From Rhizaria sp. SCN 62-66 (lineage: Eukaryota), in contig MEDY01000124.1 of NCBI GenBank assembly GCA_001724265.1, positions 1-64,000 of the forward strand: 64,000 bases of DNA, given 5' to 3'. Position 1 is the stretch's first letter. Every line of letters starts with the position of its first letter. This document shows positions 4,001 through 39,971 of this stretch, piece by piece. Both the position numbers and the translations under genes were made by a program. The notes beneath the pieces are model-generated. The model was given only the letters and a program-made list of their open reading frames with translations. It ran no database searches and had not been told where the DNA came from.

Positions 4001-5947
4001 CACTCGCAGCAACAGCAGCAGCAGCAGGCTGGTGTGCTTGCGGCGTGGGGCGACTCAGCGCGCGCTGCCGAGGTGTTCCGCTCTCGCGCCACCGGATCCT
4101 CCTCCGTCGCTGCGGCCATGTCGCAGCCCGAGCCCGACTCCGCCGCCGAGCCTGCGTCGGCACGCCTCGCCCGCCGGCGCCAGGGCCCCGTCCCGGTTCC
4201 CGCGGCCACGCGCGCGCAGCCTGACGCGGGCGCCTACTACGGCCGCCTCACCGGTGGCTACAACAGCGCGCGCAACAGCTCCCAGGTCTGCATCGGCTTC
4301 AGCGACGAGGGCGAGTGCTGGGACACCAGCAACGGCGCCGCCACCTACGCGCCGCCCGCGGCCGCGAGCGTGCCCGCGGCGGGCGTGGCCAGCGGCGCCG
4401 CCTCCGCGCGCGGCCCCCGCGGCGCGGGCGCAAGTCCCGTGCAAACCGAAAGCGCGCAGGCCGCCGCGCTGCTCTGCCCCGCCGGCGCGGCCGCGGGCGT
4501 GAGCGGCGCGGCCGCCTACGAGCACGCGCGCGAGCTGGAGCGCCAGCGCGCAGCGGCCGCGGCCGAGTCCGCCGCGGCGGAGCAACAGCGCGAGCGCGCG
4601 GCCGCTGCGCAGCGCGCGCTGAAAGTGCAGGTGGCCGCGCTCGAGCAGCAGCGGCAGGGGCTCGTGGCGCAGCAGCAGCAGCAGGTACAGATGCAGCTGC
4701 AGCAGCAGCAGCAGGCGCACGCGATGCGCGTGCAGCAGCAGCATCAACAGCGGCAGCAACAACAGCAGCAAGAGCAGCAGGACTGGTATCATCAGCTGTA
4801 GAGTGCTCGCTCGACCAGCGTTAGTGCCAACCCCAACCACGCGCACAGCGGCCAGCGCTGCTCCGACGCTCTCGTGCGCGGCCAGAGCTACGCTGCGCAA
4901 CAGAAGCAGCTTGAGCAGGCGCAGCTGCAGCAGCAGCGCGCTGCCGCGGCGGCCGGGGCGCAGGCCGCGGTTGCCGCGCTCGGCGACTAGGTCGTGCGCC
5001 GCCAGCAGCAGATCGCGATGCTCCAGCACGCGCTGCAGCACCCTGGCGCCTCCGTTCAGCCACAGCAACAACAGCAGCAGCAGCAGCAGCTCGGTAAGCC
5101 GCGCTACCTGCCCCGGCGCGGCGGCGGACTCGAACGCACTCCCGTCCGCGCCGACGGCGGCAGTTGCCCGTACACCAGTGCAAACACGGCTGTCGGCGGC
5201 GCAAACACTTTCACCTACGATGCCCCTGTCGCCGGCGCAACTGCCAACGCTGCCAGAGGCCCTGCCGCACAGCCTTGCGCGTTCACCGTTGCCGCCAACG
5301 CCCGCAACGGCGCCACCTGCGACCGCCGCCGCGCGCGCGCCCCCGTGTCGTGGTGCGTGTCCTTCAAGGGCCCTACGCAGGGCGTCGACGACGGCTCGGC
5401 GGATTCTGACTCCGAGCAGTGCGCGGGCGACGGCAGCAGCAACAGCAACAGCGGGGCCATTGCGGCCGCGACCGAAACGCTTCGGCAGCTCGCGAAGGAC
5501 CTGCAGGTGCAGGGCACTGCGTGGATGTCTCCCGCGCACCCCAGCAGCGTGGCAAGCCGCAACGGCGAGGACGCCATATCCTGCGCCAGTTCTGTGCCGT
5601 TCACGGGCTACGACGGCGCGTTTGCCCCGCAGTCCCCCGCCGCACCCGCGGCGCAGAGCGGTGCCCCGTTTGCCAGTGCTGGCCAGGCGCAGTGGGCTGA
5701 GGCCCCGCGCCCGCGGACGCCGGTGAATCTCGCCTCGCCTGGCCCGGTCACCGCCGCTCCCGTCTCCGCTTTCGCTCCTCTCTCCACGCCTGCAGCTGCG
5801 CCCGTGTCGCTCTCGGCCACTGTGTCTGCCGCGACGCCGGCCGACAACGAGGCTGCGGCTGGCGCCAATGGCGGTGTCAGCGCTGCCGAGATGAGAGGGT
5901 TTGACGTGCTTGCGTTCTTGGACGAGGCAGACGAGTTCCTCAAGTGA
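1010..5947 (+). CDS. Large Ala/Gln/Pro-rich low-complexity hypothetical protein (~1645 aa) containing two in-frame TAG codons (4799, 4988)
   Basis: ORFs 950..4801 and 4994..5947 share a frame. The gap translates ...WYHQL[TAG]SARSTSVSANPNHAHSGQRCSDALVRGQSYAAQQKQLEQAQLQQQRAAAAAGAQAAVAALGD[TAG]VVRRQQQ... with unchanged GC and codon style. Ends at TGA 5945-5947, where AT-rich sequence begins. First ATG at 1010. Confidence 0.75.
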
Positions 5948-6278
5948 AAGAAACACATCCACGTTCATGCAGAGCTGCAAAGTGTCACAAGTTCAGTGCG
6001 GATATTTTATGACAGATAATGGGTCAAAACAATGTGTATTTCGCCGTGACAAGTTATACGTTTGTTTAGATAGATAGCTAGACTATGTATGGCCACCTCA
6101 CATTCGATCACTTGGAGTGATCACTGTGATTGTTTAAGTAACGGTATTTAGTTAATTCAAATGAGTAAGAGCTCAATTCTTCGCGCTGGCCCATTGTGCG
6201 CGCGTCCAATGAATAAAAATAGTGTCAAAAATAAGCCCACCATGTTTAACATTAATTGGAAACATTGCAACAGAGTTC

Positions 6279-10681: not shown

Positions 10682-13600
10682 ATGTCATCCCTGCCCCCGC
10701 TTTCGCCCACGCGGCGCGCAGCGGCATCAAACTCTGAGTATGGTGCCACAACATCAGGCTCCAGCTCCAACTCAACCGCTGTCAGCACATGCACGTCATC
10801 ATCATCTGCAGCCACCAGTCTTATTGCGGTACCCCCGCGCTCCCCGTTTGCGGCGTCTCCGCATGCAGGTGTGCCTCCGCTATCTCCGCAACACGAAGCG
10901 TCGATCGTGAGCTCCCCAAGTCTCGGCGTAAAGAACAACAGGCATGGCGACCCCGGCAGCAACAACAACTTGGGCAGCGCTGACAAGTCCGCCGAAGACT
11001 TGCCCGATGCTGTGCAGATTACGATCACGCCCACTTCTGTTAGTGTGCGCGCGTCCACCACGCGTTCCCCTGTGCTATCACCAGGATTCGATGGCGTGTC
11101 ACCGAACGCATCTTCGCAGCAGCAGCATCGGGACGCCACATCTGCCTCAGTCACTCTCAGCAGTCCTGTCTCACACGTGCGTCAATATTTCAATTGATTT
11201 TTTCCCACTTCATACGCTTTTCAAGTTACCTATACGCTTTTGACATGATATCGATAAGCATTCTCACTCACTTCTCTCTATCATGATTTCCGACTTGACT
11301 TTTGCTTGCCCGAACCCCACAGAGCTTCGCCGACACCGGTGCACCAAGCCACTTGGCAGACGCCGCCAGCTCCTTCCACCTTGCTTCCCCAGCCACGGCC
11401 GCGGCGCGCGCGCACACCGCGCACATGGCGTCGGTCGCGTCGCCCATGAGCGTCAATGGCGGCACGCCGCTCAGCCATAGCCGCTCCCCACAGCCGCGCT
11501 CGGCGCGCGCGCAGGCCGAGTTCAACCGCTCGCTGCTAACCACGCGCAGGCACGGCGCTGTAAGCGCTGCGCAGACGCCGCAGCCGCAGAGCGGCGCGGC
11601 GCACGGGCTCGGCGCGATGACAGCTGCGATGCGCGCGCGCGGCCAAGGCTTCCTCACGCCGGCGAGCTGTGTCGCGGGCAACATCAGCGGCGACGGCGGC
11701 GGCATGGCAAGAGCTGTGGTTGGACACGAGGAGGACGAGGAAGACGGCGGATGCGCGAGCAACACAGCGCACGGACGCGCGTCCGTTGCGAGTCCGCAGC
11801 ACAGCGCGCTGCATGAGGACAGCGGCGCACCTGACGATGCAGAGCCAGAAAACGACGGCAACGTCACCGACATCAGCAGCGTTCGTGCAGACGGCCCTGC
11901 TTGCTCTCCCACGGGAGCTCGGCGTCGCACAGGCACCTTGGGTGCTGAGAGCGGCACCGAGACCGAAGGGCCTGCGTCTGAGAGCGACGCGCCGCTGCGC
12001 AACGAGTCCCGGCCGAGCTGGGAAGCTAAGCCGCACTGGGATGACCGCGCCCCGCAGCGCGTCTCTTTGTCCTACGGGCTGCCCGCCGCCTCTGCCGCCG
12101 CTGCCGCCTCTGCCGCCGCCGCCGCTGCCGGTGTTGGTATTGGGAGCGCGAGCGGCGAGGCGGCTGCTGTCGCCGGCGTCAGCAGCCAGTCGTCGAGCCT
12201 GGATTCATACAGCGGACCTCGGTCGTACGACGCCTACGATCGCGATGGCGATGAGACCGCCAACGCGCACGCTGCAGCGGACACCACGAGCAGTATCAAC
12301 TGCAGCACGCGCGTGCAGCCACAGCCCGCAGCGCCGTCAGTGTCGCAGTCGATGTCGTCGCGCCTCGGCCGGTTTGCGCTGCGTTTGCGATCGATGCTTG
12401 TGCCAAGCAACTTTTTGTTCCCAACAATCACAAACACAGACGGCACGAGCAATAGTCCCATCGCGCCCGTGTCGCCATCTATGGCGCAGCCTCCGCAGGT
12501 CCGCATCGACCCTGCGCCCATTGCAGCTGCCTCAGCCGCCGCCGCAGCCGAAGCCGCTGCGGAGGGCGGGGAGCCCGTTCCAGGTGCAGCTGTGGTTGGC
12601 GAGCCTGAGGCTGCAGCGGACACCGCAGACGGCGAGAAGAAGCCTTGCTGCACACGTCGTCGCTTGGTCATCCTAGCAGCGATTCTGATTGCCGTCATCA
12701 TCGTCGTGATCGTGATCGTGCTGTGGCAGCTAATGCTGCTGACAACAATCAACGCTGGTGACGTGCGCGTAGCGTTGGTCAACACATGCGAACCCGGCGT
12801 GATTACGCTTGCGGTGCACGTGGGCATCCGCAACCCGTCGTACTTTGGCGTTGGACTCAGCAGCACCAAGCTTGAGCTCTACAAGTCAAAGAAACTCGGC
12901 CCGTTTACGTACACGGATGACGGCGGCAGCGTGAGCACACGCGGGAGCAACTCGTCGACCAACGCACAGAAGCTCTCCGGCACGGAGGGCAAGACCCCGA
13001 TGGTGACGGTGCCGATTCCGCACATCGAGCTGCCGCGTGGCAAGAGTGCGATCGATATCCCGGACCTGCGCATCCGCATCGGCGACGAGCAGGGGCTGCT
13101 GACAACCGCGCGCTACGGCGCGCGCGCGATGGAGCTGCCGCCGATGAAGTTCAAGATTAAGCTGCCAATCCACCTGTGGCTAGGCGCGATCAAGGTCCCC
13201 GTGTCGTTCCCGCTAGAGGGCGAAATTGGGCCCGACTTCAGCTTGCCGTCGCTGCCGGGCAGCGGGTCCCTAGACTCAGGCTCGCTAACTGTCACGGACC
13301 CCGAGACAGGGGAGGAAAGAATTGTAGATCTAAGCATGATGCGCGGTTTTAACCTCGATGACATTGTCGACTTCATGAAGTCTCTCACCAACGGTCTCAA
13401 GCTCGCCGTGCTCGGCTCAAGTGAGCGCCGCGAGGACGCGCTTGTGCAGCTTAGAATTAGCTCTGTGGGTCTCAGTCCCAACACTAACTTTTCGCTCACA
13501 ATCCCGACAATGCATTTCGAGGTGCAAGCCGTGCTGCCGTCGCTCGAGCCAATCATTGTTGTCAGCAACAGTACTGGTAGCGGCTCTGGCACCAACACCA

Positions 13601-16600
13601 GTACTGGCACAGGAACTGGCACAGGTACCGGCACAGGTACTGGCACGGGCACGGGCACTGAAATCCCCGAAGTATTGCCACCCACATCTGGCGGCACTAG
13701 CGAGGGCAGTAACCCCATCGACAGTGCCGCGCGTACCACTGCGCGTGCGTTTGTGGCTGAGCGCGCGGTTGAGCGGCAAAAACTCCGGGCTGCCGCAGAG
13801 GAGAAGGTACGTTAGTCCTCTATATCTTCAGTCCATTTAATTTCTATTATATTCACAAATTTATCAAATCGCAAATCTATCACAATTTCTGTCTTTGTTT
13901 TGGATTTTTATTTCCGTTTTACGAAGGCGCGCGCTGCGGGTGGCGATGCTGCTACTATTCTCGCCGCTGGCGACAAGGCCCTCGCTGATGACACTGCAAC
14001 CTCCGGTGATCTGCCGACCACCGTTGGCGCGGCTCTACTGCAGTACGCGCACAAGCTTGCTGATGTGGGCGATTACGACCGTGAACACACCTTCATCGAG
14101 GCGCTGCGTGGCCCGCTCGTGACGTCTGTCATCGGCATCAGCATCGAGGGCTTCACGTACGGCACGCTCAACGAGGCGCAACGAACCAAGGCGCCCATGG
14201 GCATCAGTTTCTGGCTGAACTCAGAAAGTATCAGCGGACTGGAGCGGCTGGCCACGGACCTCTTCTACAACCGCAACACCACCATGCGCCTCACGGGCCT
14301 CGGCGCGCCTGTCATCGCCGCTGCGATTGCGGGCAACAACACCGTGAATTCCGGCAACGGCACCAGCAGCGGCAGCACTGCCGCCAGCAGCGCAAACATT
14401 GGCGCTGCGAGCACTACTGCGCCGATGAGCGTCGGCGTGCCTAGCAACGACGGGCTTAGCGGCCGCGACCGCCTCTCCAGCACTGACGCGGAACGGCTGC
14501 GGCTGGCCAACGCGTCCCCAACGCCCGCCATGACGACTACGGAGGCGCTGGGCGGCTGCTACGCGCAGCGCATTCTTGACCGCGTTGCACTGCATCTCGA
14601 CGTACCCACGGACGAAGACGGCACGCCGCTGCTAGAGCTGCACTCAGTCGACACACCGCACACGGAGTCGCTGACTGGCAACGCGGCGGCTGATGTTGCG
14701 CTTGGCCGACGCATCGCCACACCGCTTTCTTTTGGTGGCGCTAGGTCATTTAACACAATGGGCGGTGACCAGGGCTTCCGCGAGCGCTTTACACTGACTC
14801 GCGAAGACTTGAACTCCAAGACTGCGCTTAGCAAGGTGCTTAGACTGCTCGCGGATACAATGACTGCGCGCAGAACCGCGCCCATGGCATCGCACGCGTC
14901 TGCGTCACGCAGCGTGCTTGCTAGCGCAGCCAACAGTGCGCGGCTCAACGAGGGCATTCTGCCCGTAACAGCAGGCGCTGACAGCAGCAATAGCGCGTTT
15001 AGCAGCGGCACAGGCACTGTCTCGGTCACGCCGCTTGCTGCCACTGCCATCGGTGGTCAGACTGAGCGCGCAACGTTCCGTCCCAGCGCAGCCGTGTCGG
15101 GCCCCGCAATTAACAGTGGGCTTGCGGCGGGCAGCTACACCTCGCGCAGCAGTAGCAGCAACAGTGCTGCTAGCTCAAGCGCGGGCGCGAGCAGCGGCAG
15201 CCGCGGACTGCAGTCAGTCACGATGACGACCGAGTGGGCCGCTGCCGCTGCAATGGTAACCGCGCCGACAAGCGACTCGTCCCGCTCCACCGCGCTCAGC
15301 ACTATCACGCGCGGTGTTGCGCTGCGCGAAGCCACGTTTGCACCGGTACTTGCGGTTGCGGAGGGCGATGAAAGCCAGCTCTTCCATGGCGCAGTCCGCG
15401 CGAACTTCAGCATCAACACGCCGCTGCTGCCTACTGTCTCCATTCCTGCGGTGGGTTTTATGCTGCAGCGCGCGTCAGGCGCGAGCAATCACATGGGCGC
15501 GCTGTTCCTGCCGCAGCTCTCACTGGGCAAGTCTGTGACGTGGTACGCTCCCGCAGTTGAGGGCGCGTGGTTGTCCGATCTGCCCGGCTCAGTGCAAGTG
15601 CTGCTTGACTTGCTCAACGACGACGCGCGCGGCAAGGGCTTTGCTGTCTCGTCCGCCAACACCGACGAGGACATGCTGGTCAAGGGCAGCAGCATTGCGA
15701 CAGATCTTGTGCTTGATGGCGGTGCGATGGTGGGCGAGATGATCAATGGAGTGCTGGAAGGCGTCTCAGTTCTCGACGTTAGTCTTAAGCACGGGCTCAA
15801 CCTTACTCTTAATCTGCCTCTCGACTCGCCGCTTGCAACCGGGATTAAGGACGTCGTCCTCGGTGTCGGCATCGGCATTCCGGCGGGCTACTCGACAGTG
15901 CAGATCTATGATGCCGCGTCTGCGATGAACGCCATCGACAGGTTCTTTTTCTCTCTAGATGAGGCGGACTCTGCGGCAGCAAACAACGGCTCTGCAAGCA
16001 GCACCGCGCGTGTCACGGTGCTCAACACCGGAGACAGCGGTGCGCACAGTGTTAGTCGTTTGCCCGACGCAGTGCCCGTTGCGCACAGTAATCCGCTCGT
16101 TGCACTTCGCTCTCTTGCCACTGCAAATAACGTCACAACAAGCAGCAACCAGAACTTTAACGCACTTGACGCGCTGTTGACTGTGCTGCCTGCGTCTAGC
16201 CGCACAACTGTGCTGGAGGCGCTGCCGCAGAACTTGCGCTCCGCATCTGCGCGCGCTGCCTACCCGGAGTTCGTACCCAGTGCTGCGGCTCTTGAGGCGT
16301 TGTCAGAACAGCGTGCGGCCGCGCGTGCAGCATCGACTACTACCGTCCCTGCAACACGGGCTAGCCCGAATGCGGTCTTGAGCGCAAGTGCTCGCAGCGG
16401 CCGCATGTCTACTCTTGCGGCGACGACCAACAGCACAAAGAGCAAGAGTGCAATCACCCTTAGCAGCGGCAAGGGTATGGCACTGTCCCCGCTTGTTGGC
16501 GTCTCTTTGCCCAATATCACGCTGCACAAGGGTGTCAACGACTGGCTGTTGGGCGTGCACGTGCGCACCGACGGCGAGGCCACCGACTTCCTCAAGGACT

Positions 16601-17777: not shown

Positions 17778-20425
17778 TCACTTGTGCGGAGACTGAGATT
17801 GCTGCTGTTGCGGAGACATCGGTCCTCGCATCGGCGACTGCAGCTGCTGTCGCTACGGTTGCTGCCGCTGTTCGTGCACTGTCGCATTCGTAGCAGACGC
17901 GGGGAGCTTGCCAGTGACAAGGAATACAGTCGCTGTGGCCGCCGTCGACGCCCCTGTGTAGGCCAGTGAGGTCAACCGCGACCAGATGCTCCCATCCTCT
18001 CCCTCGTTCTCAGTCTCTGCGTCGGCCACAGGAAGTTGCTGTTGCCCGGGACCACTTGCGCCCACAGTCGCCGCGGTGACTGTGCCAGCCACAGCGCCGC
18101 CACTGTCGTCGTTGATATGGCAGTCGCGGTGAGCACCGGTGCACGGAACGAGAGTGAGTGCGTTAGCGGGGAGATGGCTGATAGCGTCGCAGTTATCACT
18201 TGTTTCGTGGGTCAAGTTACCAGCAACACCAACGGCACCCTGCTCAGCTGCGGAAGTTGCCGTGAGCGCATTCCTAACAGCCTCTCCACTCTGTGCACCG
18301 GCATCATCGAACATAAGCCGCCTGGCGGCCTCGTCCCTCTCCTGCACGCAGTCGCCCAGCGCCTCGGGCCCCTCCTGTCCACAGTCACCACTACCGTCGC
18401 CCGCCAGGCTGTCGGCGGGCGGCGCCAGCGCCCAGCTCAGCCACCCCACGAGCATTCTAGCCGCGCCCGAGCCCGCGTCATCGCCCTTGGATCCACCACC
18501 GTAGCCGCCGCCGCGGCCGCCACCGCCACTGCTGCTGTTGCTTCTTGCGTTCGTGCCGCCGCTGAGGTCGACGCCGCAAAGGGTCACGAGTGCCCGCGCG
18601 TACCCGCGCCAGCCGCCGACGCCGTGGTGCGCGCCCAGCACGCGCGCCCCAGCACGCAGCCGCAGCGCCAGCCCCAGCACCAACAGCAGCCGCGCCGCGG
18701 CGGCCAGCGCCGGCAGCCGCGCGTCGCCGCCGCCCACGGCCGGGGCCGCGTTGCGTCGCAGCAGCACCGTCGCGCCGCCGCTGCCACTGCCGCCGCTGCT
18801 AAACATGCCCCCCCGCGCCGGCGCCGCGAGGTTGATGCTCCCCGCGCCCGCGCCATTCGCGCCCGCGCTGGCACCGGAGCAGGCGAAAAAGCGCGGCGTG
18901 ACCAGGTCCAGCGGCACAACGGCCATGCGCGCGAGCACCGCCGCGGCGGCCCGCGCGACCGCGGTGCCGCCCGCGCGCCACGCCAGCGCGAGGCAGAGCA
19001 CGTCCACGAGCAGGTCGACGCGGAAGCGCGAGCCGAGGAGGCGGGCAAGCGCGCGGCGCTGGCGGGCCAAGGCCGCGGCCTGCAGACGCAGGCGCGCGTC
19101 CACGGCGGCAAAGCGGCGCTGCGTGGCCGCGGCGTGCGCGGTTAAAGCGCCGTCGAGCCTGGTATGAGTTAGTTCGCAACAAAATAGAACAACATGTAAA
19201 CAAATACAAAGTTGGTAAGAGAAAACATCTCCATACTGCCGTAAATCAACAGCATAACTCCAAATTAATGCAGATTGCACCAAAAACGTGAAAACAACGT
19301 GATTTGCGGTGATATAGCATTATCGTACCTGTTGACGTCGCCGCCAAGCGCCCCCAGCGCCGCATCAGCCCTGGCAAGCGCCGCGTCGTGCTCCGCGAGC
19401 GCGGCCGCGTGGACACCAAGCTCCCGCTCATGTTCAGCGATGCGGCCGTCCATGGCGCCTACGCGCTGCGCCCCGGCCGCGAGCGCGCGGTCCAGCGCGG
19501 CGACGTCAGAAGCCACGCGCTGCACGCGGAGCGCGGCGGCGTAGTCGTTGGCCAGGTGCAGCGCGTGGAGCTGCGCCGAGGCCGCGTTGATGCGGTTCTG
19601 CCGCAGTGCGTTCTCGTCGTGGAGCAGCAGGTAGCGCGCCAGAGCGCGGCCCAGGGAGCCGCGGGAGGCGAGAGCTGCCAGCGCGGGGGAAGACAGCGAC
19701 ATCGCGCTCCCGGGCTGCTGCGTTGACGACAGCGGGCCATGCTGCAGGTGTTGGCGGGTTGCCACAGCCGAGTGACTGTGCGGGGCTGGCGCAGTTAGCG
19801 GCGCCGAGGCCAGTGCTGAGAGCGCGGCGGCGGTCGTCGCCGGAGGGAACGAAGCCGAGGCGGACGCGGTGGGTGAGAACTCGTGCAGCGTAGAGGGCGC
19901 GCAGCCTGCTGCGCTCGCGTTGCTGTGAGCAGACGCGGACGAAGGCGCCGCGAGCGCGATCGCGGACACGGAGGCCGCCGCGGGGAGCAGCGGCGGCAGA
20001 CTGAGCAGCGCGAGCGCGTCCCTGCTCGCGTGCTCGAGCCCGCCACCGCCGGCCTGCGGGGCGCCGCTAATGGTAATCGTGGCCAACGGGCGAGACAGGG
20101 ACGGGAACGAGAGGACCGCTAGAGCGGGTGCAGCCGCTGTGTCTGCGTCCGCGTCGGCACCAGTTTCTGGCTGCTGCGTTAACCCCATTCTTGCTTCTTT
20201 CTCTGTCGCAGTCTCAGCTCCGGAGAATGCACCTGAGTCACTGTGCGGAGGACTCTTAACCTCCAAACGCTCGATGTTGGGCGTATAGGCAGGGCTAGAT
20301 ATGTTGCAGCGCTCGTGCGAGGACACTGTGTTATGAGTTGTAGCTTTGTTTGGAGTTGCATGAGGGAGTGCAGGGCCCGACACGCGCCGCTCATCCGCAG
20401 ACGGCGACGACAAAGGCGAGCTCAT
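17778..20425 (-). CDS. Hypothetical coiled-coil protein with hydrophobic segments, ~825 aa; exons 20425-19329 and 19158-17778; one in-frame TAG (17853-17855)
   Basis: A phase-2 intron joins ORFs 19265..20440 and 17853..19283. Past the TAG the frame continues ...HEQRQQP[TAG]RQQLQSPMRGPMSPQQQQSQSPHK-TGA(17778). The heptad-like region runs from LARYLLLHDENALRQNRIN to IAEHERELG. Confidence 0.72.
19159..19328 (-). other. Spliceosomal intron (170 nt, phase 2)
   Basis: CAG|GTACGA ... ACTAACTCATACCAG|G, with a branch-point-like CTAAC next to the acceptor. Confidence 0.85.
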
Positions 20426-26956: not shown

Positions 26957-27344
26957 CGCTGGACAGGCGCGTCGCGGCCGCGGGGGGTCAGCGGCGAAGA
27001 GGTGCTGGGGGGAAAAAAGGGTGGGAGAGAGGGAAGCGGGCCGGGACCACGAAAATGGGTGCGGGCTAGAGGTCGGGCGGCGAAGGGCAAAGACAGAGCG
27101 AAAAGGGGCGACAAAAGGAACAGCGCAGCGGTGAGTATAGAGCTTTTCGTAAGATTTCTATAGATTTAATAAAACAATTGCTCTTCTTATTTTCTTTAAA
27201 TCGCAGTTAAATCCCGTCGTGACGGTGTTTAGGGCCTGGCAGATATGTTTTGCGTGCAGCCCTCGCACCAACCAATAGCCGACCCGCCCGCCGCAGCGCG
27301 GCTGCAAGCGAGGGTTCTCAAAAATCTGGCGGCAGCAGCGAGAC

Positions 27345-27360
27345 GAGATGAGGCGATGAG
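27345..27360 (+). promoter_or_regulatory. Tandem PAC-like motifs (GAGATGAG, GCGATGAG) in the NOP14/REI1 divergent spacer
   Basis: Exact matches to the GMGATGAG core of the yeast PAC element, lying between two ribosome-biogenesis genes. Function is inferred only. Confidence 0.35.
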
Positions 27361-27402
27361 GAGGACTGGGTTGTGAGTCAAAAGTGATTACGTTCTGTTG
27401 AA

Positions 27403-29446
27403 ATGGACCATAATTACGACAACGATTTCATCTGCAATGCGTGCCAGTGCCCGTTGCCCACGCCCGAGTCTCGGTACGTTCTTCAGCTCCCCAGCAAAGC
27501 GTATATACGCACTATTCTGCACCCTTCGCCCTTCACACCATCTCGCCCTTCAGCCTCACCGCACTTGTTGTAATAGACCTGGTATATCGATGCTCGTGAG
27601 TACAACATGAATATTTTGTGCAAGAAGGAACTTGTAAATACTTATAACCACTCGTACATTTACCACCGGCTTACATTTTTCCCGCCATTTCCATGCTTCT
27701 CGCATCTCCACCACGAATGCATTGCCCGCATACCCTCCTTGCTCCCCTGCCCCGTATCACCCCAACGCCCCGCACAGTCTCCAGCACTACCGCACGACGT
27801 GGCACCGGTACAACGTGCGCCGCCGCTGCGTGGACCTGCCGCCGATCCCGCAGGAACTGTTCCTGAGCAAGTACGACAAGGTCCGCGAGGAGCTGGCCGC
27901 GCCGACCGTGCAGGAGCTCACCTGCCCCGTCACCAAGCGCACCTTCAAGACGGCCGCTGCGCTCGAGCACTTCCACAGCTCCAAGGCGTACCAGAAGGCG
28001 CTGGAGAAGGCCAACTCGCGCACTTCGCGCGCCGAGGACCTCGAAGCGCGCGTCGCCCGCGGCGAGGCCGTGCCGACCGAAGTGCGCAACAGCGACGGCG
28101 TCGTCGTCGACAAGGTGCTGTACCGCGTTCCCACGGCCGAGGAGGACCCCGTGAACCCCGAGGAGGAGGCGCTGCTGCGCCGCGACACTGCGCGCGCCGA
28201 GGCCGCCGCCGCGACGGGCGGTGTGCTTGCGCCCAGCGTGGCGACGGCGGCCGAGTCGTCCGCGGCCGCGCTGGCGGGCGAGGAGGCGCGCCGCACGGGC
28301 CAGCTCCCCGTGCCGACTTCGGCAGCGATGCTGGAGATCATGGCCGAGGCCGGGTACGCGCCCGACAACCTGCTGCACCGCCCGATCCCGCTGCGCTACT
28401 CGCTGTTCGACCGCGTGGGTCCGTTCCGCTCCGTCAAGGGCTGTCTCGACTACATGCTGCGCGAATACGGCTTCCACATCCCGTTCGTGGCGTACTTGAC
28501 CAACCTCGAGGGGCTGATGGAGTATCTGGGCACCAAGGTTGGCGTGGGCCACACGTGCGTGTGGTGCCACAAGGGCTTCGCGTCGCTCAAGGACGTGCAG
28601 CAGCACATGCGCGACATGGGCCACTGCATGATCTCGCTCGACGACGAGGAGGGGCAGGAGGACGAGGACTTGCACGAGTACTTCGAGTTCACGCACACGC
28701 TCGACCGCGAGGCCAACAACGGCGAGGACGACAACGACGAGTGGCTCGGCGACGCCGACGCCGCCGCCACTGTCGCCAACGACGGCGACAACGAGGAAGA
28801 GGAGGAGACGGGCGCGAGCAAGCCCAAGGTGATGACCGACAACGCCGACGCCGACGACGAGGACGCTAAGGCCGCCGCGCTGCCCAAGCTCACCAAAGAG
28901 GAACGTCTGCAGCTGCGTGCGACGCAGCGCCTGCGCACGCTGCAGCTGCTGCGGCTCAAGACGGCCGCCGAGGCCGCCGAGGCCGAGGAGCACCTCAACG
29001 CCGTGGCCGCGATCCCGTCCGCGGAGCGCGCGCTGGTGGAGCGCCCCGAGCAGACGTACAAGGGCATTCTGACCTTCGCAGCGCCGCGCAAGCGCGAGCT
29101 GGTGGAGAAGAACGAGCTGGGCGAGCTTGTGTTCGCCGACGGCAGTGTTATCGGCCACCGCCAGTACAGGCACATGTACCGCCAGCGGCAGGCGACGACC
29201 GAAGAGCGCGACCCCGAGGAGGAGCTCGAGGCGCGCCAGATGCGCGCCGCGCTGACGAACCAGTACGCGTCGCTCCAGATGCCCGGGTACGCCTACACGG
29301 TGACCGAGACGCCCAAGGAGTACTCGGTGGCGATGGAGAAGCAGCACCGCGAGGTGCGCCAGCGCAAGCTGCGCGAGGAGAACAAGCAGGGTATCAACTA
29401 CAACATGATCCTGCGTCGCTGGTTCCGCCACCAGGTCCCCAAGTAA
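27403..29446 (+). CDS. REI1: Cytoplasmic pre-60S maturation factor REI1/ZNF622, ~579 aa; exons 27403-27473 and 27778-29446
   Basis: Splicing rebuilds the N-terminal zinc finger FICNACQCPLPTPESR|LQHYRTTWHRYNVRRRCVDLPPI. Also YGFHIP..YLTNLEGLMEYLGTKV, CVWC..F..LKDVQQHMRDMGHC and ELVFADGSVIGHRQYRHMYRQ. Stop TAA. Confidence 0.92.
27474..27777 (+). other. Spliceosomal intron (304 nt, phase 2) in REI1
   Basis: CG|GTACGT ... CGCACAG|T gives CGT (Arg) and unites CxxC with the His pair. Confidence 0.88.
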
Positions 29447-29840
29447 GCGCCGAGAAGGGCGCGCCAGTGCTGCAAGGCAAGGGCAAAGGTTAGCAACACT
29501 GTCAATCGAAGAAGAAGGCTTTTATCAGCGTTGCCTTGCGTTCCTTGTGTGATCGATCTTGCTTGCTGCTGCTTTGAACACTTTTGTTTTCGTTCTTTTG
29601 TTTGTTTTTGTTTTGCTCGCGCATCTAGTTCGCGATTGTCTGCCACTGTTACGTGTGTCAGTTGGAGGACGTGCTTGTGCGCACGCTTTTCTTGCTGTTG
29701 GTTGTTGGTTGACGATGGTGGCAAGGACTCATTTCGTTTTAGACCTCAAAATATACACATTTTAATTTTCACAGTTCGCTTGACGCAATGTATGTTGCAT
29801 GTCAATTCTGCAATCGTTTATTCGTAGCTGTCTCACACAG

Positions 29841-32315
<2,475 letters not shown>

Positions 32316-32605
32316 GGCGAAAGTGCCGTGGCCACAATCGTTGCTCGCCTCAAGTAGGTAGTCGTTATTGTGGATGCCCTGAATATAACAGTGACTTCGA
32401 AGACTTGCTTTCGCTGAGGCGACAGGGTGAATCGAGAAGAGATTGATGATACGTTAATATAGATTCTCTGAATATATAATTAAGAAGTTCAATTTAAAAC
32501 ATAGATATAATAATTCTCTCAAAATGCCATGTCTATTGACGAACATCTAAATGATATCAAACTATTTTTTTGTTGCTTCATTCTATCTCCCAACAAGGAT
32601 CAAGC

Positions 32606-35600
32606 ATGCTTCGCTCCGCACTTTCGTGCAGGCGCGGAGCTCTTGCTCTTTCACGTTTCACACTGCCCTTCGTTGTTACAACAACTTCAACACTGAGTGC
32701 ATCCATTTCTACCCGCGGCTTTGCTGTGCGCCTGCATCAATCTCTCCCGACGGTGAAGCCGAGTTTCTCCTGCCCCCTCGCCCCTCGTGCTTTGCCCGCT
32801 GCCACCACCGCTCTTCGCGCCTCGCTTCCCGCCTCAATTCGCGCTTTCTCCGCGGCCCATGCATCCCCTGTGACCGCGCGGCCGCACATGCTCGGCGAGG
32901 ACTCCGGTAACGAGCGCACGCACACCTGCGCGGCCGCCGCGGCCCTCGCGCCCGGCACACCAGTGTGCCTCACCGGTTGGGTGATGCGCTCGCGCGCGCT
33001 CGGCGGCGTCCTCTTCCTCGCGCTGCGCGACCATACGGGCTCGCTACAGTGCGTGTGGGAGCTCGCGCACGCCACCGCCGCCGCGGCGCCGCTGCTGGCC
33101 GCTTTTCCGGGGCTGGCGGACGCAGGCGCGCTCGGGCCCGCTGGCTTCGCAGCCGCGTCCGAGGCGCGCGTCGAGTCCGTCGTCTCGGTCCACGGCGTCA
33201 TCCGCACGCGCGAGACCGCTGCGCGCACGCGCGGCACCGCCGGCGGCAAGGGCGCTGTTGATGCGAGCACGGCGGATGAGAGTACCAAGAGCTTCACAGC
33301 TCTGGACTGGACGGCACAGTCGCTCGCCGCGGCCCAGAGCAACGGCTCTGCGGCCGGGCTGGCGTCCGCACAGACAAGCCCGGTCTCGGCGTCCCCGGTG
33401 TCCCTGGCGTGCGTGGGGCAGTCCCCGTTTGCGGGCGTGACTGCGGCGCCGCAGCCGAGCCTGGGCGCGCTGGCCGAGGCCTCCGCGCTGCCCGTCGAGC
33501 TAGCCATCACCTCGCTCAAGGTGCTCAACCCGGCCGCCACGCTGCCGGGCGTCTTCTTCCCGGGCGCCGGCGAGACGCTCTCGGACGAGGACACGCGGCT
33601 GAAGCACCGCTACATTGACCTGCGCCGCCCGCAGCTGCAGGCCGCCGTGCGCGCGCGCGCCCGCATCACCGCGGCGGCCCGCACAGCGCTCACCGCTGCC
33701 GGCTTCACAGAGGTCGAGACGCCCGCGCTGGTCAAGTCGACGCCCGAGGGCGCGCGCGAGTTTCTAGTGCCGTCGCGCGCGGCGGGGGCGTTCTACGCGC
33801 TGCCGCAGTCGCCGCAGCAGCACAAGCAGCTGCTCATGGCGGGCGGCGTGGACCGCTACTTCCAGGTCGCGCGCTGCTTCCGCGACGAACACGGCCGCCA
33901 GGACCGCCAGCCAGAGTTCACACAGATCGACCTGGAGATGGCGTTTGTTACGCAGCGCGAGGTCATGGCCGCCGCCGAGGCGCTCGTCGCGGCCGCGCAC
34001 GAGGCCCAGTTCGGCGTCGCGCCCGCGCTACCCCTGCCGCAAATGCCCTTCTTCGAGGCGCTCGACCGCTTCGGCTCCGACAAGCCCGACTTGCGCTACG
34101 CGCTGCCGCTACACGACATCACCGACGCCATGCTCAACGGCTATGAGGGCGGCGCGGACGCTGCTGTAGCCAGTGACGCACTGCTCGCGCGCTGCGAGAG
34201 CCTATACCCCGGCTTCGTGTCTGCACACGCTGAGCACAGCAACAACACCAGCAGCACCAGTGTCACTGTGAACGCAGATGGGACTGCCGCCACGCGCGTG
34301 CCCGCGCGGTCGGTGCTGCCGTGCGTCAAGGCGCTGGTGCTGCGCGGCCAGGCGCCCGCGCTGTCCAAGAGCAAGTCTAAGGACGCGGTCGCGGGTGTGC
34401 GCCGCGCGGGCGAGAGCGCCGCCACGCCCGACGGCGTCTTCGTTGTGCACGCGGGCAAATGGAAGCCGCCGCCGTCGCTGCCGGCGCTTGCGAGCCCCGC
34501 CGTGCGCGCGCGGCTCCAGCAGCAGCTCGCGCTGGGCGACGACGACCTGCTGCTCATCGCGGCGGGGCCCTGGGAGGGTGTGTGCAACGCGATGGGCCGC
34601 GTGCGCGCCGCGGCGGCGCGGCTACTGCCGGCCGACGCGCCTGATGCGACGCCCGTGCTGCTGCGCAACAGCGCCGGCACGGCGACCTACGCCGCCACCT
34701 GCGAGGCCCGCGAGCGCGCGCGCAGCGCCCGGGCGACCAAGACCGCGACCGCGACTGCGGACGCCGACTCGGCGGGTGCCGCGAGCGCTGCTGCGGGCGC
34801 GAGCGCTCTCACAGCGGGCGTGAACGAGGGCCCGCTGCCGATGCTGCACTGGGTGACGGACTTCCCTCTGCTGGACGTGACGGTGCCGCCCGCGGTGTGG
34901 CGCCAGCGCAGCACGGCGGGCGCGCGCCACGTCTCGCGCGCTGCCGGCGGCAGCAGCGACGACGCCGCAGCGGCTGCGGGCGAGGCGGGCGCTGCGGGCG
35001 GCAAGGACGTGTTCATCCAGGCCATGCACCACCCGTTTACCGCGCCGCACCCCGCGGACGCCACCGAGGCCGACGCGCTGCTTGCTAAATTCGTCAACAA
35101 CAGCAACGCGCCCGCGAGCGGCAGCAGTGATCCGCAGAGTGTGGCTGAGAATAGCAAGAGCGACCGTGCGTTCCCGCTGTCATTCGCGGAGCTCTCGGCG
35201 CTGCTGCAGGTGCGCGCGCAGCACTACGACCTGGTCGCCAACGGGCTCGAGGTCGGCGGCGGCTCCGTGCGCCTGCACGCGCCGCCGCGCCAGACAGCGG
35301 TGCTGCGGACGATGGGCGTGGACCCCGCGCAGTTCGAGCACCTGCTCGCCGCCCTGGGCTCGGGCTGCCCCCCGCACGGCGGCTTCGCGGCGGGGCTGGA
35401 CCGTCTCGTCGCGCTCCTCGCCACGGGCTCCGGCGCACCGCTGCCGCTGCGCGACGTCATCGCCTTCCCCAAGACGCTCACGGGCAAGGACGCGCTGCTG
35501 GGCGCGCCCGCGCCGGCGACCGCGGCGCAGCTCGCGGAGTACCACATCGCCACCGTTGCGCCGGCGCGTAGTAGCAACAGCGGCGACGGCAGTGGTGAGG

Positions 35601-35608
35601 CCAAGTGA
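32606..35608 (+). CDS. DARS2: Bacterial-type (mitochondrial) aspartyl-tRNA synthetase with N-terminal targeting peptide, ~1000 aa
   Basis: RTHTC, GWV..R.LGGVLFLALRD, RLKHRYIDLRR, TPEGAREFLVP, YALPQSPQQHKQLLM..GVDRYFQVARCFRDE, DRQPEFTQIDLEM, FGSDKPDLR, HHPFTAP, YDLVANGLEVGGGS, PPHGGFAAGLDRL, VIAFPKT. Arg/Ser/Leu-rich, acid-poor N-terminus from ATG 32606. Stop TGA. Confidence 0.95.
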   Translation: MLRSALSCRRGALALSRFTLPFVVTTTSTLSASISTRGFAVRLHQSLPTVKPSFSCPLAPRALPAATTALRASLPASIRAFSAAHASPVTARPHMLGEDSGNERTHTCAAAAALAPGTPVCLTGWVMRSRALGGVLFLALRDHTGSLQCVWELAHATAAAAPLLAAFPGLADAGALGPAGFAAASEARVESVVSVHGVIRTRETAARTRGTAGGKGAVDASTADESTKSFTALDWTAQSLAAAQSNGSAAGLASAQTSPVSASPVSLACVGQSPFAGVTAAPQPSLGALAEASALPVELAITSLKVLNPAATLPGVFFPGAGETLSDEDTRLKHRYIDLRRPQLQAAVRARARITAAARTALTAAGFTEVETPALVKSTPEGAREFLVPSRAAGAFYALPQSPQQHKQLLMAGGVDRYFQVARCFRDEHGRQDRQPEFTQIDLEMAFVTQREVMAAAEALVAAAHEAQFGVAPALPLPQMPFFEALDRFGSDKPDLRYALPLHDITDAMLNGYEGGADAAVASDALLARCESLYPGFVSAHAEHSNNTSSTSVTVNADGTAATRVPARSVLPCVKALVLRGQAPALSKSKSKDAVAGVRRAGESAATPDGVFVVHAGKWKPPPSLPALASPAVRARLQQQLALGDDDLLLIAAGPWEGVCNAMGRVRAAAARLLPADAPDATPVLLRNSAGTATYAATCEARERARSARATKTATATADADSAGAASAAAGASALTAGVNEGPLPMLHWVTDFPLLDVTVPPAVWRQRSTAGARHVSRAAGGSSDDAAAAAGEAGAAGGKDVFIQAMHHPFTAPHPADATEADALLAKFVNNSNAPASGSSDPQSVAENSKSDRAFPLSFAELSALLQVRAQHYDLVANGLEVGGGSVRLHAPPRQTAVLRTMGVDPAQFEHLLAALGSGCPPHGGFAAGLDRLVALLATGSGAPLPLRDVIAFPKTLTGKDALLGAPAPATAAQLAEYHIATVAPARSSNSGDGSGEAK

Positions 35609-35929
35609 TATGGGCAGCTGAGTGACTATTTATTATATTGCAATCATATCGTGATGCTTTTGTTTAAAATGCGACTATTTTGTCTGTTATTCACGTTTCG
35701 ATACATAATGGCCATTTCCTAGAAACCCATGGCTGAATTATGACAAATATAGCAGGAACCACCACCAGTAACAACACGCAAATGAAAAAGAAGGAAAACA
35801 GTATCTACAATAAGTACTTTAGCTTTGCGCACTTTGCTTAGAAGCCATGTTCGTCTTAATAAAAACAAACTGCACATCGTTGTTATTGACGTTTTATTCT
35901 GACATTCCTTCTTGTTTTGTGTTTGTCTC

Positions 35930-38900
35930 TCATGCGTCTGAAAGCTCAGAGGCCTCATCAGCCGCGTGTTCCGCTGCCTCCACAGCAGCGGCGACCGACT
36001 TCTCGCTATGCCCCGCGGCAATCGCATCAGCAGGGAGCGAGTGTTGTCCATGCGCATGCGCTAAGTGGCAGTGCGCCGCAGTGTCCGCCTGACTTTGCAC
36101 GCTCTGCTGGCTGTGCGCGTCACGCGGCTCCTGCTGCAGGAGCTACGACTGCTCGTTATGCGACGGCGGCTGGAGCTGCACTGGCTGCGCTGGTTGCACA
36201 TCTTGCGCGCTGCTCTGCGGTGACCCCTGGTGCACCTGTGGGGGCGACAGTGCGGGCTGCTGAGACATGTGCTGCGAGGAGTGCGGTGCAGGCTGCGACC
36301 GTGAGTTCGGATGCGTCAGCGGTTGAGCAACGTTTGGCTGTGATACCTGCTGTGATGACTGCTGGACGGCAGTTCCCTGCGACTGGGTCTGCGCATGCTG
36401 TGCTGCCTGCGGTTGCGCTGACTGCAACCGACTTGCGTGCGGCTGGGGGATCCGCCTTTGATCTTGAGACTGCGGTGTCTGCGACATAGACAGTGGGAGC
36501 TCGCCAAGGCCGCCGCTGACACTAACACCATTGCTGCTTGTCGCAGACACTTGCGGTGACTGCGGCTGCCGCTGCGAGTTGAGCTGTGAGAGTTGATGCG
36601 GGGAGCTTCGGGCCAGCTGAAGGTGCTCCTGTTGAGAGCTGTGGAGTTGCGATTGATGCTGCGGGTGCTGAGAGAACCGCGGTTGTTGCGACACTTGCGA
36701 GTGCCGCGGTGGTGTCGCCTGCGGTTGCGGAGACAGCAGCTTCTGCTGCAGCGGTGACTGAAGCTGGCTTTGCTGCGGTGAGCTTTGCTAAGAGCGCCGC
36801 TGCTGCGACAGCGCCAGAGCCTGCTGCTCAAGCTGAGTATGGGACTTCACATGGGACAGCATGCTCAGGTTGGCCTGTGACAGCGACTGCGGCATGTTCA
36901 GTAGCCTTTCTTTGTGCACGCCCCCTTCCGCGTCCGACTCAGAGTCAGCCCGCGGGCTGCGCTGCAACGGAGTCAGCTGCGACGGGGACCGCAGTTGCAG
37001 TGGTGGGCGCTGTGCCTGCGAATGTGACGGCGACTGTAGCTGCGTTCGCTGTTGGCGTGCCTGTTGCGACTGCGAGAGCGATGCTTGACGCGATTGCTCG
37101 CGTTGCTGTAACGGGGACATCTGCTGCGAGTGCGGCCACGTGAGCACGTGTGCCGGAGACTGCGCTGGAGAGCGTTGACGCAGTTGTGCCGGAGACTGTG
37201 ATGGTGAGCGCACCTGCGACTGCGCTTGCGACGCGCGCGAGCTTTCAATGGCGGCCTGACTGCTTGCGCTCTGACTCCGTGTCTCGCCTGTGCCAGCGTC
37301 AGCGCGGCCGATAGTGCCACTGGCATCTCTGCGGTTTCTGCTGTCAACAGCAACCTCGTCATAGCCCGCACCGCTGCCGAGAGCGTTCGCGTCCACTGGC
37401 GGCCCCGCACCGGTCACTGCGCTCACGCTTGTGTTTGTTTCCGCCCCCGTGATTGCGTTGTCGCCGATACCCTTTGTGCAGATATCGCGATCGTCCACCA
37501 TCGGCGTCCCGGCGACACCCTCGCTGTCGACGACGGCGGTCGCAACAGGCGCGGCTTGAGGACCATTACTCAGCGTGCTGCCGGCAACCTTGTCGCCCTC
37601 GACTGGGTGCGCATCAGTGCGACGAGCGCTTGACCGACCGCGAGACACCGCTGCCGCCTCCGCCTTCGCCATTGCAAGTGCCTCGGCATCGGCCTGCGCC
37701 ACCTTTGCCTTTGCTTTTGCGGCCGCCTCAGCCTACGCCTTGTTCTCCAGGCTCTCAGTCACCAAATCGCGCTCAGTTTTGCCGCCAACCCCGTCGCGAC
37801 TCACCGCGGCCTTCACCTCCCGCGCCCGCGCATCGGCCGACTTGGCGGCCCGTTTATCCGCCGCGGCCTCTTGCTGCGCCAGCGCCGCGCCCGCCGCGGC
37901 CTCGGTCTGGTCCGCCTGGCTAAGCCACCACGCGTCGACGAGGGCCGCCGTCGCGGGCACGCGGCCCTGCGGCGGCCGGGCGCCGAGGCCAACCAGCGGG
38001 CTAACGACGCTGTTGCTAACATGCGCGCGGCCGTGGCTCGGGGCGGGGGCCGGGGCGGGCGCGTGTGCGAGCGCGCCGAGGCCGGGACTGGCCGCCACGC
38101 CGACGGTGGCGAACGGCATGGGAACGGATGATGACGTGTTGTCGTACTCTTTGACGCTGTCGGAGCTGTTGACGCCGCTGAGGGTAGTGTTGTTGTTGGC
38201 GTTTTCATTGTCGCTGTCATTGAGTACCATGTTCGCAAGACTGTTCACATTCTCATCATTCGCACTGTTTGTGTCGTCCGCGTTGGCGCTTCTGATAGCA
38301 GCGTCGGCATCTGTATCACCGGCGTCACTGTCGTTGGCGGCATCACTTGCTGCGTCAAGTACAGCTGCAGCGACATCCTTTGCAAGAAAATCGTCGCTAA
38401 TACTTTTTGTCGCCGTCTGATCTGCATGCGCATCATCATCCGCATGAGCCATGTCACGATGAACAGCGTGTTCAAGGTTCATATCCCGGCCCTTTGTAAC
38501 CACAGCCGCGTCCTCCGCCGTGATTGCGCGCGCCACCACCGCGTTCCCAGTAGCTGCCGCGGCGGCCTTGCGCGCCGCCGCGGCTTTGAGCGTCTCCGCT
38601 ATCGGCGGCACCCAGTCAGACGGCCTGCCGAAGGGCACCTGGGACTGGTACCTGAAGTTGGACCGCTGCGAGCTAGCCTACATCTTCACGTTAAGCTTCC
38701 GCCGCGCCGGCGCGTTCTCCGCGTCTTCCTCGTCATTGTCTAGGTCACTGTGATGACTACGATCGGCAATGTCGTCGTCATCTTCGTGGCCGACATCGCC
38801 GGCGTGAGCTACCGAGCCACGTCGCAGCCCTTGCCTCACCACCGCGCCCTTGGCTCCCGTGCCCGCGAGGCCGTCGTCGCCGTCGCGGTCCGCGCTCGCC

Positions 38901-39971
38901 AGCGGCAGCCGCGCGCTCAGCGGGGCCGCGCGCGCGGGACGGGGCGGCGCCGTGTAGACTGTCAGTGGCGGCTGCGAGGCCCTAAGACGGGCCCACTTAG
39001 AGCTGTCGCTTGGCTCAGCGCCCGTTGCGAGCGTGGTGGCGGCGGCGGCTGTGGCGTTGATGGCCGAGGCAGGCGCTGGACGCTTGGTGCCTTTCTTAAC
39101 GCAGTGACTGTCTCCGAATTCGCTGTTGTCGTCGCTATCGTTGTCCGAGCGAAGAGCAGCTTCGTCGAACGCGCCGTCGCCTTCGTCGTCGTCGTCGCTG
39201 TCCTTGCCCTTTCCGGAGTCCTTGCCCTTCTCTTGCACCTGCAGAGCCGATGCAGCGCCCTGCTTGACTCGGCCCTTGCTCCCGCCAGTCGTGCCACCAA
39301 ACGCGCGCTGGTTAAACACAGTCAGTGACGGGCCGGCGCTTGCGCTTGAGATTCTTGGTGCCCTCGCAGACTTGCTACCAGCCGCAGCCGCGGTCGCGGC
39401 CGTCGGAGGCGCCGCAGTGGAGCCGAGTCCGCTGGAGCTTGAGCTGCTGGTGGCCACCTCCGACCACGCGCTCGTGGACGGACTTGCCTCGGAGGGGCTC
39501 AGCCCAGCCACCGCGCGGTCTGCAACGGTCCTCGCGGCGGAGAACGCGATGAAAGCGCGGAGCTTGGTGACGCGCTGCTCGACCTCGCTCTCGACCGCGT
39601 CCACGGCGCCGATCTGCTGGAACCAGAGAGACTGTGGCAGCGCGTCGTACACCACGCGCCGCACGCGCTCACAAGCCGCGACGTTGCGGCGGAGAAAGAC
39701 GGAGCAGGACGCATGAAGCGCGCGCACTGCGGGGGCAGGATCGGACGTGGTGGAGAAGTCGGTGTCTTCGACGCTGTGGACGAGGGTGTCGAGCTCTGTC
39801 GTCGCTGTCGCCTTGAGGGACTACAACTCCGAGAGGCAACGATCGCGACCAGCCTAAAAATATATAACATCAACGGGAAATGCGTGTTTATTTAGCTTGT
39901 TACGTTATTGAGGATCTATCAATGTGCGATCAGGAAGGAAGGGAACGTACCTCAATCTGGCGCTCTGTCAT
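35930..39971 (-). CDS. Hypothetical protein with SQ/SP-rich C-terminus, ~1314 aa; exons 39971-39951 and 39853-35930; five in-frame TAG codons (39821, 38678, 37733, 36788, 36143)
   Basis: ORFs 38678..39727, 37733..38638, 36788..37702 and 36143..36694 share one frame, and each ends in TAG. Manual translation of the gaps shows no TAA/TGA until TGA 35930-35932, at the GC-to-AT transition. N-terminus MTERQIE|AGRDRCLSEL[TAG]SLKAT. Confidence 0.72.
39854..39950 (-). other. Spliceosomal intron (97 nt, phase 0)
   Basis: GAG|GTACGT ... ATTTTTAG|GCT. Confidence 0.75.

Follow-up and report, generated by a model that had tools for sequence, protein, structure and literature searches.

The 64,000-nucleotide stretch analyzed here (the window), positions 1 to 64,000 of the forward strand of contig MEDY01000124.1 in the assembly of Rhizaria sp. 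SCN 62-66 (GCA_001724265.1), is intron-poor eukaryotic nuclear DNA of about 21 genes. Its coding blocks, at ~60-80% GC, are separated by AT-rich spacers of ~190-960 bp (GC 0.39-0.50), and gene orientation alternates between the two strands. Four of the genes, designated g1, g2, g3, and g5 (Table 1), carry TAG codons within frames that otherwise stay open. A sequence-only reading of the window had proposed on this basis that UAG is a sense codon of the nuclear genetic code while UAA and UGA remain stops, and the meaning of UAG in these four genes is the subject of our analysis.

In-frame TAG codons in four genes

With TAA and TGA taken as the only stops, the frames that hold the four genes extend over 905-5947 (+), 17778-19319 (-), 29841-32453 (-), and 35930-39904 (-). 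All 14 TAG codons listed by the sequence-only reading were verified in position and strand, each within a long open frame, and its description of frames continuing to a TGA near a drop in GC content was borne out for all four. Our gene models likewise agree with it in lacking any internal TAA, TGA, or frameshift, and the base after TAG varies as reported, leaving no fixed readthrough motif downstream. The in-frame stops of the four frames comprised 14 TAG, 0 TAA, and 0 TGA; the remaining five frames of the same regions held 91 TAG, 81 TAA, and 308 TGA, and at the corresponding TAG share of 0.19 the probability that all 14 would be TAG by chance is ~8e-11. The absence of in-frame TAA or TGA from all 17,736 modelled codons indicates that a single stop codon is affected, and no frameshift was present in the 4,158 codons of the TAG-bearing genes. 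Many long non-coding frames are open in DNA of ~70% GC, and the frames could in principle have opened by accident, or the TAGs could be assembly errors. Against such an origin stand the probability just given, the existence of orthologs of g2, and the recurrence of the same TAG boundaries in the gene calls of other assemblies and in contigs from other sequencing runs; it deserves next to no weight, and chance is excluded as the source of the TAG-only pattern. Among standard-code gene calls in JGI/IMG and Logan assemblies, whose samples are possibly not independent of the window's source, P0278 and P0279 end just before TAG 31059, and P0281 and P0282 just before TAG 38678.

Table 1. Coordinates of the genes, exons, introns, and TAG codons considered in the text (AspRS, aspartyl-tRNA synthetase)
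Feature	Position	Strand	Details
g1, low-complexity Q/A-rich protein	1010..5947	+	first ATG 1010; TGA 5945-5947
g1 TAGs	4799-4801, 4988-4990	+	in frame
Intron in gene 11302-17214	13807..13926	+	120 nt, AT-rich, GTACGT...AG; read from sequence
g5, orphan gene	17778..18926	-	first ATG 18924-18926; TGA 17778-17780; TAG 17853-17855
g2, lineage-restricted conserved protein	29841..32315	-	824 codons; TGA 29841-29843
g2 TAGs	32310, 31953, 31929, 31608, 31059, 29856	-	codons 2, 121, 129, 236, 419, 820
AspRS, mitochondrial type	32606..35608	+	Pfam tRNA-synt_2, 9.8e-89; ends TGA; no TAG
g3 exon 2, low-complexity protein	35930..39853	-	TGA 35930-35932
g3 TAGs	39821, 38678, 37733, 36788, 36143	-	spliced codons 25, 406, 721, 1036, 1251
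g3 intron (predicted splicing)	39854..39950	-	97 nt, AT-rich, GTACGT...TTTTTAG, phase 0; read from sequence
g3 exon 1	39951..39992	-	ATG + 13 codons; ends just before GTACGT 5' splice site

The sequence flanking the TAGs is GC-rich (0.47-0.85) and coding in style, unlike the AT-rich introns. The frame of the TAG scored best of six, or tied for best, over the 80 codons downstream of 12 of the 14 TAGs, including four of the five in g3; TAG 36788 was the clear exception, and TAG 17853 gave a tie, its 80-codon span entering the untranslated region (UTR). With a codon-usage model (log-odds) for which the seven Pfam-bearing genes of the window (~7,300 codons) served as training set, the same-frame score of g1 was 0.326 before the two TAGs, 0.369 between them, and 0.278 after them, with the other frames at -0.2 to -1.0. 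The pieces of g1 adjoin one another without an AT-rich spacer, whereas every intergenic region of the window is AT-rich. No Pfam family matched the g1 protein.

Orthologs, introns, and strain variation

A search of 1.84 billion representative sequences, with g2 translated with TAG as Gln (Q), returned four proteins at E <=1e-10, namely the window's own two standard-code fragments and two orthologs, P0128 (511 aa, no stops, E 7e-45) and P0130 (156 aa, E 4e-15). P0128 lies with the AspRS ortholog P0006 on one 6189-bp contig, and P0130 with a second AspRS ortholog, P0007, on one 6470-bp contig; AspRS, located between g2 and g3 in the window, provided the synteny anchor, and these shared contigs indicate that the g2-AspRS neighbourhood is conserved in two relatives. 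P0128 is collinear with g2 on either side of the TAGs at codons 121, 129, 236, and 419, sharing eight blocks in the same order: KDSIPWS...ELARL; EWWVR.QC..GGM.LHLDKDEGLW; HP.WASVLYLTG; GGGPT.V.D.GL; PPGWAW; VWPR.G.WL.FAGDRLHGV.PP; RVTVL.N.WR.RP.D.TC.RFPLP; and LW.RYG.L. TAGs 121 and 129 fall between the first and second blocks, TAG 236 between the second and third, and TAG 419 between the fifth and sixth, an order suggesting that one protein spans them. A TAG comes immediately after the ATG at 32315, and in both g2 and P0128 a Met and eight residues precede the L-x-KDSIPWS block, which argues that this ATG is the start and the TAG codon 2. In a relative-rate count over 131 three-way columns, all of them downstream of the first four g2 TAGs and most downstream of codon 419, 14 unique changes were assigned to the window, 11 to P0128, and 18 to P0130, suggesting that the g2 of the window is not evolving faster than its orthologs. 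The collinear ortholog and the rate result appear to constitute the strongest support for UAG as a sense codon; genes showing such signs of function need to have their TAGs read.

The rate result also bears on the possibility that the code is standard and that g1, g2, and g3, with g5 as well, became pseudogenes recently or were truncated, their stops being TAG only because CAG, GAG, TCG, and TGG dominate GC-rich, Q-rich genes. By codon content, TAG would indeed make up 47-80% of random nonsense mutations (0.47-0.53 in g2, 0.61-0.67 in g3, and 0.70-0.80 in g1); even so, 14 of 14 has a probability of only ~0.001-0.004 under the mutation spectra, and no frameshift accompanies them. Approximately 3% of random g2 substitutions would be nonsense, as estimated from codon counts, and six of them would imply ~8% neutral divergence. 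Such divergence would leave a visible excess of unique changes, and the 14 seen against 11 and 18 thus disfavor decay. If g1 ended at its TAG, the 1.1 kb that follow, GC-rich and coding-like in the same frame, would form a spacer unlike all the others, which are AT-rich, and three or four pseudogenes among the 21 genes of a compact genome would be implausible. Pseudogene decay is accordingly disfavored, although features of TAG usage considered below lend it some weight. C-to-T mutation resembling repeat-induced point mutation was a separate candidate and was rejected, the TpA/ApT (0.51-0.54) and (CpA+TpG)/(ApC+GpT) (1.29-1.32) ratios of g2 and g3 being as in other genes.

The family formed by g2 and P0128 had no Pfam match, its best E value in a profile search of the PDB was 1.6, and P0128 could not be usefully modelled with AlphaFold (mean pLDDT 36.9). 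Atlas gave a weak 2OG-Fe(II) oxygenase lead for g2 (9 of 30 matches, score 0.92, 38% of cluster members), which we do not rely on. A search aimed at shorter fragments of g2 returned only the window's two fragments, a limit of the search in which low-complexity words filled the candidates and not evidence that homologs are lacking. The gene call of P0130 covers the C-terminal third only (g2 codons ~375-760), its first residue being L; under conserved synteny, the N-terminal part it lacks would lie toward AspRS rather than the contig end, and the g2 gene of that relative may therefore have an internal stop too. Proteins of the window are greatly enlarged through low-complexity inserts, AspRS reaching 1,012 aa and g2 824 aa compared with 511 aa in its ortholog, and g2 contains a run of ~45 Asp.

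Two spliceosomal introns are recognizable in the window, and they share the 5' splice-site hexamer GTACGT. The one at 13807-13926 lies within a GC trough (13738-13996), has a negative in-frame codon score (-0.208), and hides a 15th frame-compatible TAG at 13813, whose translation is thus not required; it joins the open reading frames (ORFs) 11302-13815 and 13900-17214 into one gene of ~1,930 codons. The other belongs to g3. Counting from the stop that precedes it, the long frame of this gene lacks an in-frame ATG until codon 407. The only ATG of g3 would be reached through exon 1 and this predicted intron, which would make TAG 39821 codon 25; like codon 2 of g2, this TAG at first resembles 5' UTR, yet the gene models place both inside coding sequence. 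The existence of such introns raises the possibility that the 14 TAGs are themselves removed before translation, either by RNA editing or as part of unrecognized GC-rich introns whose 3' AG the TAG supplies. In g2, the TAG codons 121, 129, and 419 belong to segments that the orthologs lack, in keeping with such removal, and a GTGAGT occurs 27 nt upstream of TAG 31608. The recognizable introns, however, are AT-rich and 97-120 nt long, whereas GC-rich sequence, coding-like in the same frame, flanks the TAGs; at 31608 the putative intron would measure 30 nt, and no comparable 5' splice site was seen upstream of the other TAGs. Introns would furthermore be free to break the multiple of three or to contain TAA or TGA, and no TAG-bearing segment does so. 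We consider removal before translation very improbable.

Three consecutive g3 TAGs (38678, 37733, and 36788) are spaced exactly 945 nt (315 codons) apart twice, probably by coincidence, with no 945-nt repeat and no shared flank found there. The N-terminal 135 residues of g3 used as a query returned no homolog, which reflects a limit of the search and is not evidence of absence. In g5, the sequence is GC-rich and Q-rich from the TAG to the TGA and turns AT-rich ~20 nt past the TGA. This TAG lies 24 codons before the TGA, and the poor score of the 24-codon tail (-0.50) suggests that it may be the true stop; TAG 29856, only four codons before the TGA of g2, could be a true terminator as well. The last codon before the stop is AAG (Lys) in six of the 21 genes (5945, 6279, 17778, 29446, 35608, and 63865), g1 and g5 among them, which is a small point in favor of their TGAs as real ends.

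Strain comparison was based on contigs of four sequencing runs aligned over 20050-40049 and refers to the differences listed, beyond which lie 149 further differences and 6 indels. Position 37735 is C rather than A in run X5 (two contigs, depth 14.1/14.1) and in run X4 (one contig, 5.3/5.3), compared with 0/6.1 in run X3, so that TAG 37733 reads GAG (Glu) on the coding strand in X4 and X5. The same two runs have a synonymous change, TTG>CTG, in the codon that immediately precedes TAG 39821. TAG 36143 is retained in X4, where record 14 (35444-36147) contains three differences, none of them at this codon. In-frame indels of +6 (31499), -12 (30131), and +3 (38187) were found in g2 and g3 in X4/X5 among those listed, at least the -12 indel sitting in a codon repeat, and X4 has a 2-nt deletion just past the TGA of g2. 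The polyA RNA run X6 yielded contigs on g3 (36840-37126 and 39439-39732) and on conserved genes, for which DNA carry-over is possible and whose depth cannot rank expression; none of the X6 contigs listed was shown to bridge a TAG or the g3 intron.

Usage of TAG and the reading of UAG

The sequence-only reading had counted 17 gene models, of which 13 without internal TAG ended in TAA (6) or TGA (7). These totals did not hold, since we obtained 21 models, 17 of them without internal TAG and ending in TAA (9) or TGA (8), but its observation that such genes never end in TAG did, and this absence from the 17 intact genes speaks further against pseudogenes. Over all 21 models the terminators were TAA in 9, TGA in 12, and TAG in none, a small sample confined to the window; assuming that TAG made up 20% of terminators, the probability of finding none in 21 is ~0.009. 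In one gene (44996-45001, + strand), the start ATG comes directly after an in-frame TAG at 44996 (TAG ATG). At 50184-50192 (+) the order is TAG TAG ATG, with another ATG upstream at 50151, which would lengthen that protein by 13 codons if TAG is sense.

Several observations weigh against UAG as a sense codon. The 14 TAGs are confined to four of the 21 genes, where even use would place them in about nine (P ~3e-4), and the seven Pfam-bearing training genes contain none. None of the 14 TAGs lies within a Pfam domain, and none coincides with a column that P0126, P0128, and P0130 conserve. Had TAG been a neutral synonym of CAG, used at the TTG/CTG ratio, ~150 would be expected as opposed to the 14 observed, and Q-rich genes of low codon bias do without it, such as 44999-46468 (75 Gln codons), 40343-43714 (72), and 50865-52391 (71). 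Codon bias is lowest in g2, and g3 too is one of the four least biased models; these genes also have the two lowest values of GC content at third codon positions (GC3), 0.60 and 0.72. Differences between strains in g3, among those listed, comprise 3 synonymous and 9 non-synonymous changes, indicating weak constraint; given such near-neutral evolution, the TAG/GAG difference at 37733 need not be synonymous. Run X4 carries a +1 insertion at 29893 in the tail of g2, 12 codons before TAG 29856, so that the last ~17 codons of g2 are unconserved between strains and the tail appears unconstrained. ARAGORN found no tRNA gene in the window, nor does the window encode eRF1.

The density of TAG is inversely related to codon bias (Spearman rho -0.56, p 0.008) and to GC3 (rho -0.49, p 0.024), with 12 TAGs in 5,476 codons at GC3 below 0.76, 2 in 4,123 codons at 0.76-0.85, and 0 in 8,136 codons at 0.85 and above. 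TAG is not an ordinary sense codon in this window, and the gradient with codon bias fits a codon that is costly and rarely decoded. Decay of weakly expressed genes would produce the same pattern of bias, however, and the pseudogene explanation keeps some weight for this reason, which also counts against UAG as sense. The low codon bias and GC3 of g2 and g3, the excess of non-synonymous differences in g3, and the absence of TAG from conserved columns would all suit pseudogenes, as would the GAG found in place of TAG 37733 in other strains, which is expected of a derived nonsense allele. Set against the mutation spectra, the rate count of g2, and the terminators, these points leave recent pseudogenes improbable, at a level slightly below that of the leaky terminator considered next.

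UAG could instead still be a terminator, with useful readthrough arising from near-cognate or low-level suppressor decoding; dispensable, weakly expressed genes would then tolerate TAGs, and full-length protein would be a fraction of the product. The restriction of TAGs to four of the 21 genes, the least codon-biased ones, and always to variable or inserted segments agrees with this, as does the presence of C or G after 11 of the 14 TAGs; C after a stop codon is the leakiest context in eukaryotes. TAG 17853 and TAG 29856, being near 3' ends, could act as stops in such a system. Against this reading, none of the 21 models ends in TAG. With six leaky stops, g2 would moreover yield hardly any full-length protein, whereas its blocks beyond the TAGs are conserved at the rate of intact orthologs, and the variable context provides no fixed motif for readthrough. 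Leaky termination therefore seems unlikely to us, although it is the least unlikely of the alternatives weighed here.

Taken together, the collinearity of g2 with its ortholog, its unaccelerated evolution, the TAGs placed at codons 2 and 25, and the absence of TAG from 21 terminators suggest that UAG is probably decoded as an amino acid in this organism, UAA and UGA being the sole regular terminators, and we assign this reading a probability of about 0.72. The original proposal accordingly stands as the best explanation of the window and falls short of a demonstration, as no TAG occupies a conserved column. If UAG is decoded, it would be a rare and disfavored sense codon that has accumulated only at unconstrained sites of weakly biased genes. 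The TAG-bearing genes are probably weakly expressed, and a recent or inefficient reassignment would fit the rare use of UAG. Decoding may involve a tRNA whose anticodon, CUA, arose by a single base change in a tRNA for Gln, Glu, Leu, Lys, Tyr, Ser, or Trp, along with poor recognition of UAG by eRF1. The amino acid inserted is likeliest to be Gln or Glu, judging by precedent and by the single TAG/GAG difference between strains, and that difference does not establish Glu. In the ciliate PL0344, UAG reportedly encodes Glu.

A more specific account, which we offer tentatively and with less than even confidence, is an early or incomplete capture of UAG in an unsampled GC-rich, mitochondriate lineage, in which the codon has gone from terminators, remains costly, and is tolerated at unconstrained sites of weakly expressed genes. 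Were this so, the change could be datable within a small clade, P0128 being uninterrupted and P0130 perhaps stopped, and the amino acid might possibly be Glu, which is unreported for a code in which UAG alone is reassigned.

Related codes and the remainder of the window

Reassignments of UAG alone are few, comprising those of exLh, Iotanema, and some ciliates, and they bear on an old question, how capture can affect one of the two stop codons and spare the other. In exLh (Sainouroidea, Rhizaria), UAG encodes Leu, and 71 conserved genes contain 384 in-frame UAGs, with a concentration at columns of conserved Leu (PMC5304391). As in the window, UAG alone is reassigned there and the terminators are only UAA and UGA (56 and 15, compared with 9 and 12 here), and UAG is rarest in ribosomal-protein genes, the most highly expressed, much as TAG in the window thins out with rising codon bias (PMC5304391). 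On the same account exLh differs in that many conserved genes carry UAG, whereas the 14 TAGs of the window occur in four orphan or lineage-restricted genes and in no conserved column; exLh is also insect-associated, whereas the organism of the window occurs in wastewater and bioreactor runs (PMC5304391). Iotanema spirale (Fornicata) is similar in having UAG alone as sense (Gln) with UAA kept as a stop; it is an anaerobic fornicate with UAG in conserved genes such as RPB1, whereas the window encodes a mitochondrial AspRS and a mitochondrial carrier and its conserved genes are free of TAG (PMC5304391).

In phyllopharyngean ciliates, UAG has come to encode Leu or Gln through three independent changes, described from metagenome-derived assemblies (PMC11687900). 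These ciliates likewise reassigned UAG only and retain UAA as a stop, but UAG is widely used there and suppressor tRNAs were identified, in contrast to the rare use and the absence of a tRNA in the window (PMC11687900). Amoebophrya sp. ex Karlodinium veneficum, in which reassigned stops are absent from about half of the transcripts, offers a precedent for gene-wise clustering; all three stops are sense there, UGA doubles as a stop, and the genome is AT-biased, whereas TAG alone is affected here (PMC6394959). The oligohymenophorean ciliate PL0344 also has decoupled meanings of UAA and UAG, which specify different amino acids; both are sense there, whereas UAA is still a stop here (PMC10553269).

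Open-access literature, supplements excluded, contained no report of UAG reassignment in a GC-rich wastewater eukaryote. Ciliate macronuclear DNA does not resemble a GC-rich contig of 64 kb that holds many genes separated by AT-rich spacers. The organism of the window probably joins the known cases in which UAG alone is reassigned, from which it is set apart by habitat, by a compact GC-rich genome, and by the very low use of UAG, clustered in few genes. A GC-rich, non-ciliate lineage of this kind would be a natural test of codon-capture versus ambiguous-intermediate models. Standard-code callers already fragment the genes of this organism in public databases, where pieces of 165, 325, and 349 aa end at TAGs. 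Its recurrence in wastewater and bioreactor data sets places genome, tRNA, eRF1, and transcript data within reach.

DNA runs labelled bioreactor or wastewater contain 98-100% of the sampled window words, although these are possibly the window's own source, and the independent 2025 run X4 contains 58%. Relatives of AspRS comprised two proteins at 55-56% identity and two at 40%; the named eukaryotic matches among those listed were all fungi, and they scored level with bacterial matches. A metagenome scan with the AspRS alignment returned at least 591 bacterial-type loci, the best 80 of which included no close relative (top identity 54%), and scans of genome contigs and viral contigs for Nop14 gave no match.

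The proteins of the window matched eukaryotic nuclear families in Pfam, namely Nop14 (2e-116), RING fingers, zf-C2H2_2, and glyoxalase, along with a mitochondrial carrier (2.3e-43) and the mitochondrial-type class II AspRS listed in Table 1. No Rfam family was found in the window. Neither strand of the region 48400-50150 (~1.7 kb) showed a convincing ORF, and Rfam and tRNA matches were absent there; with its high codon score (0.54), a short ORF at 49035-49307 (-) within it might belong to a spliced gene as an exon. The ORF at 54104-63865 (+) encodes 3,253 aa, in which the sole domain is an RsgA-type GTPase at residues ~1994-2092.

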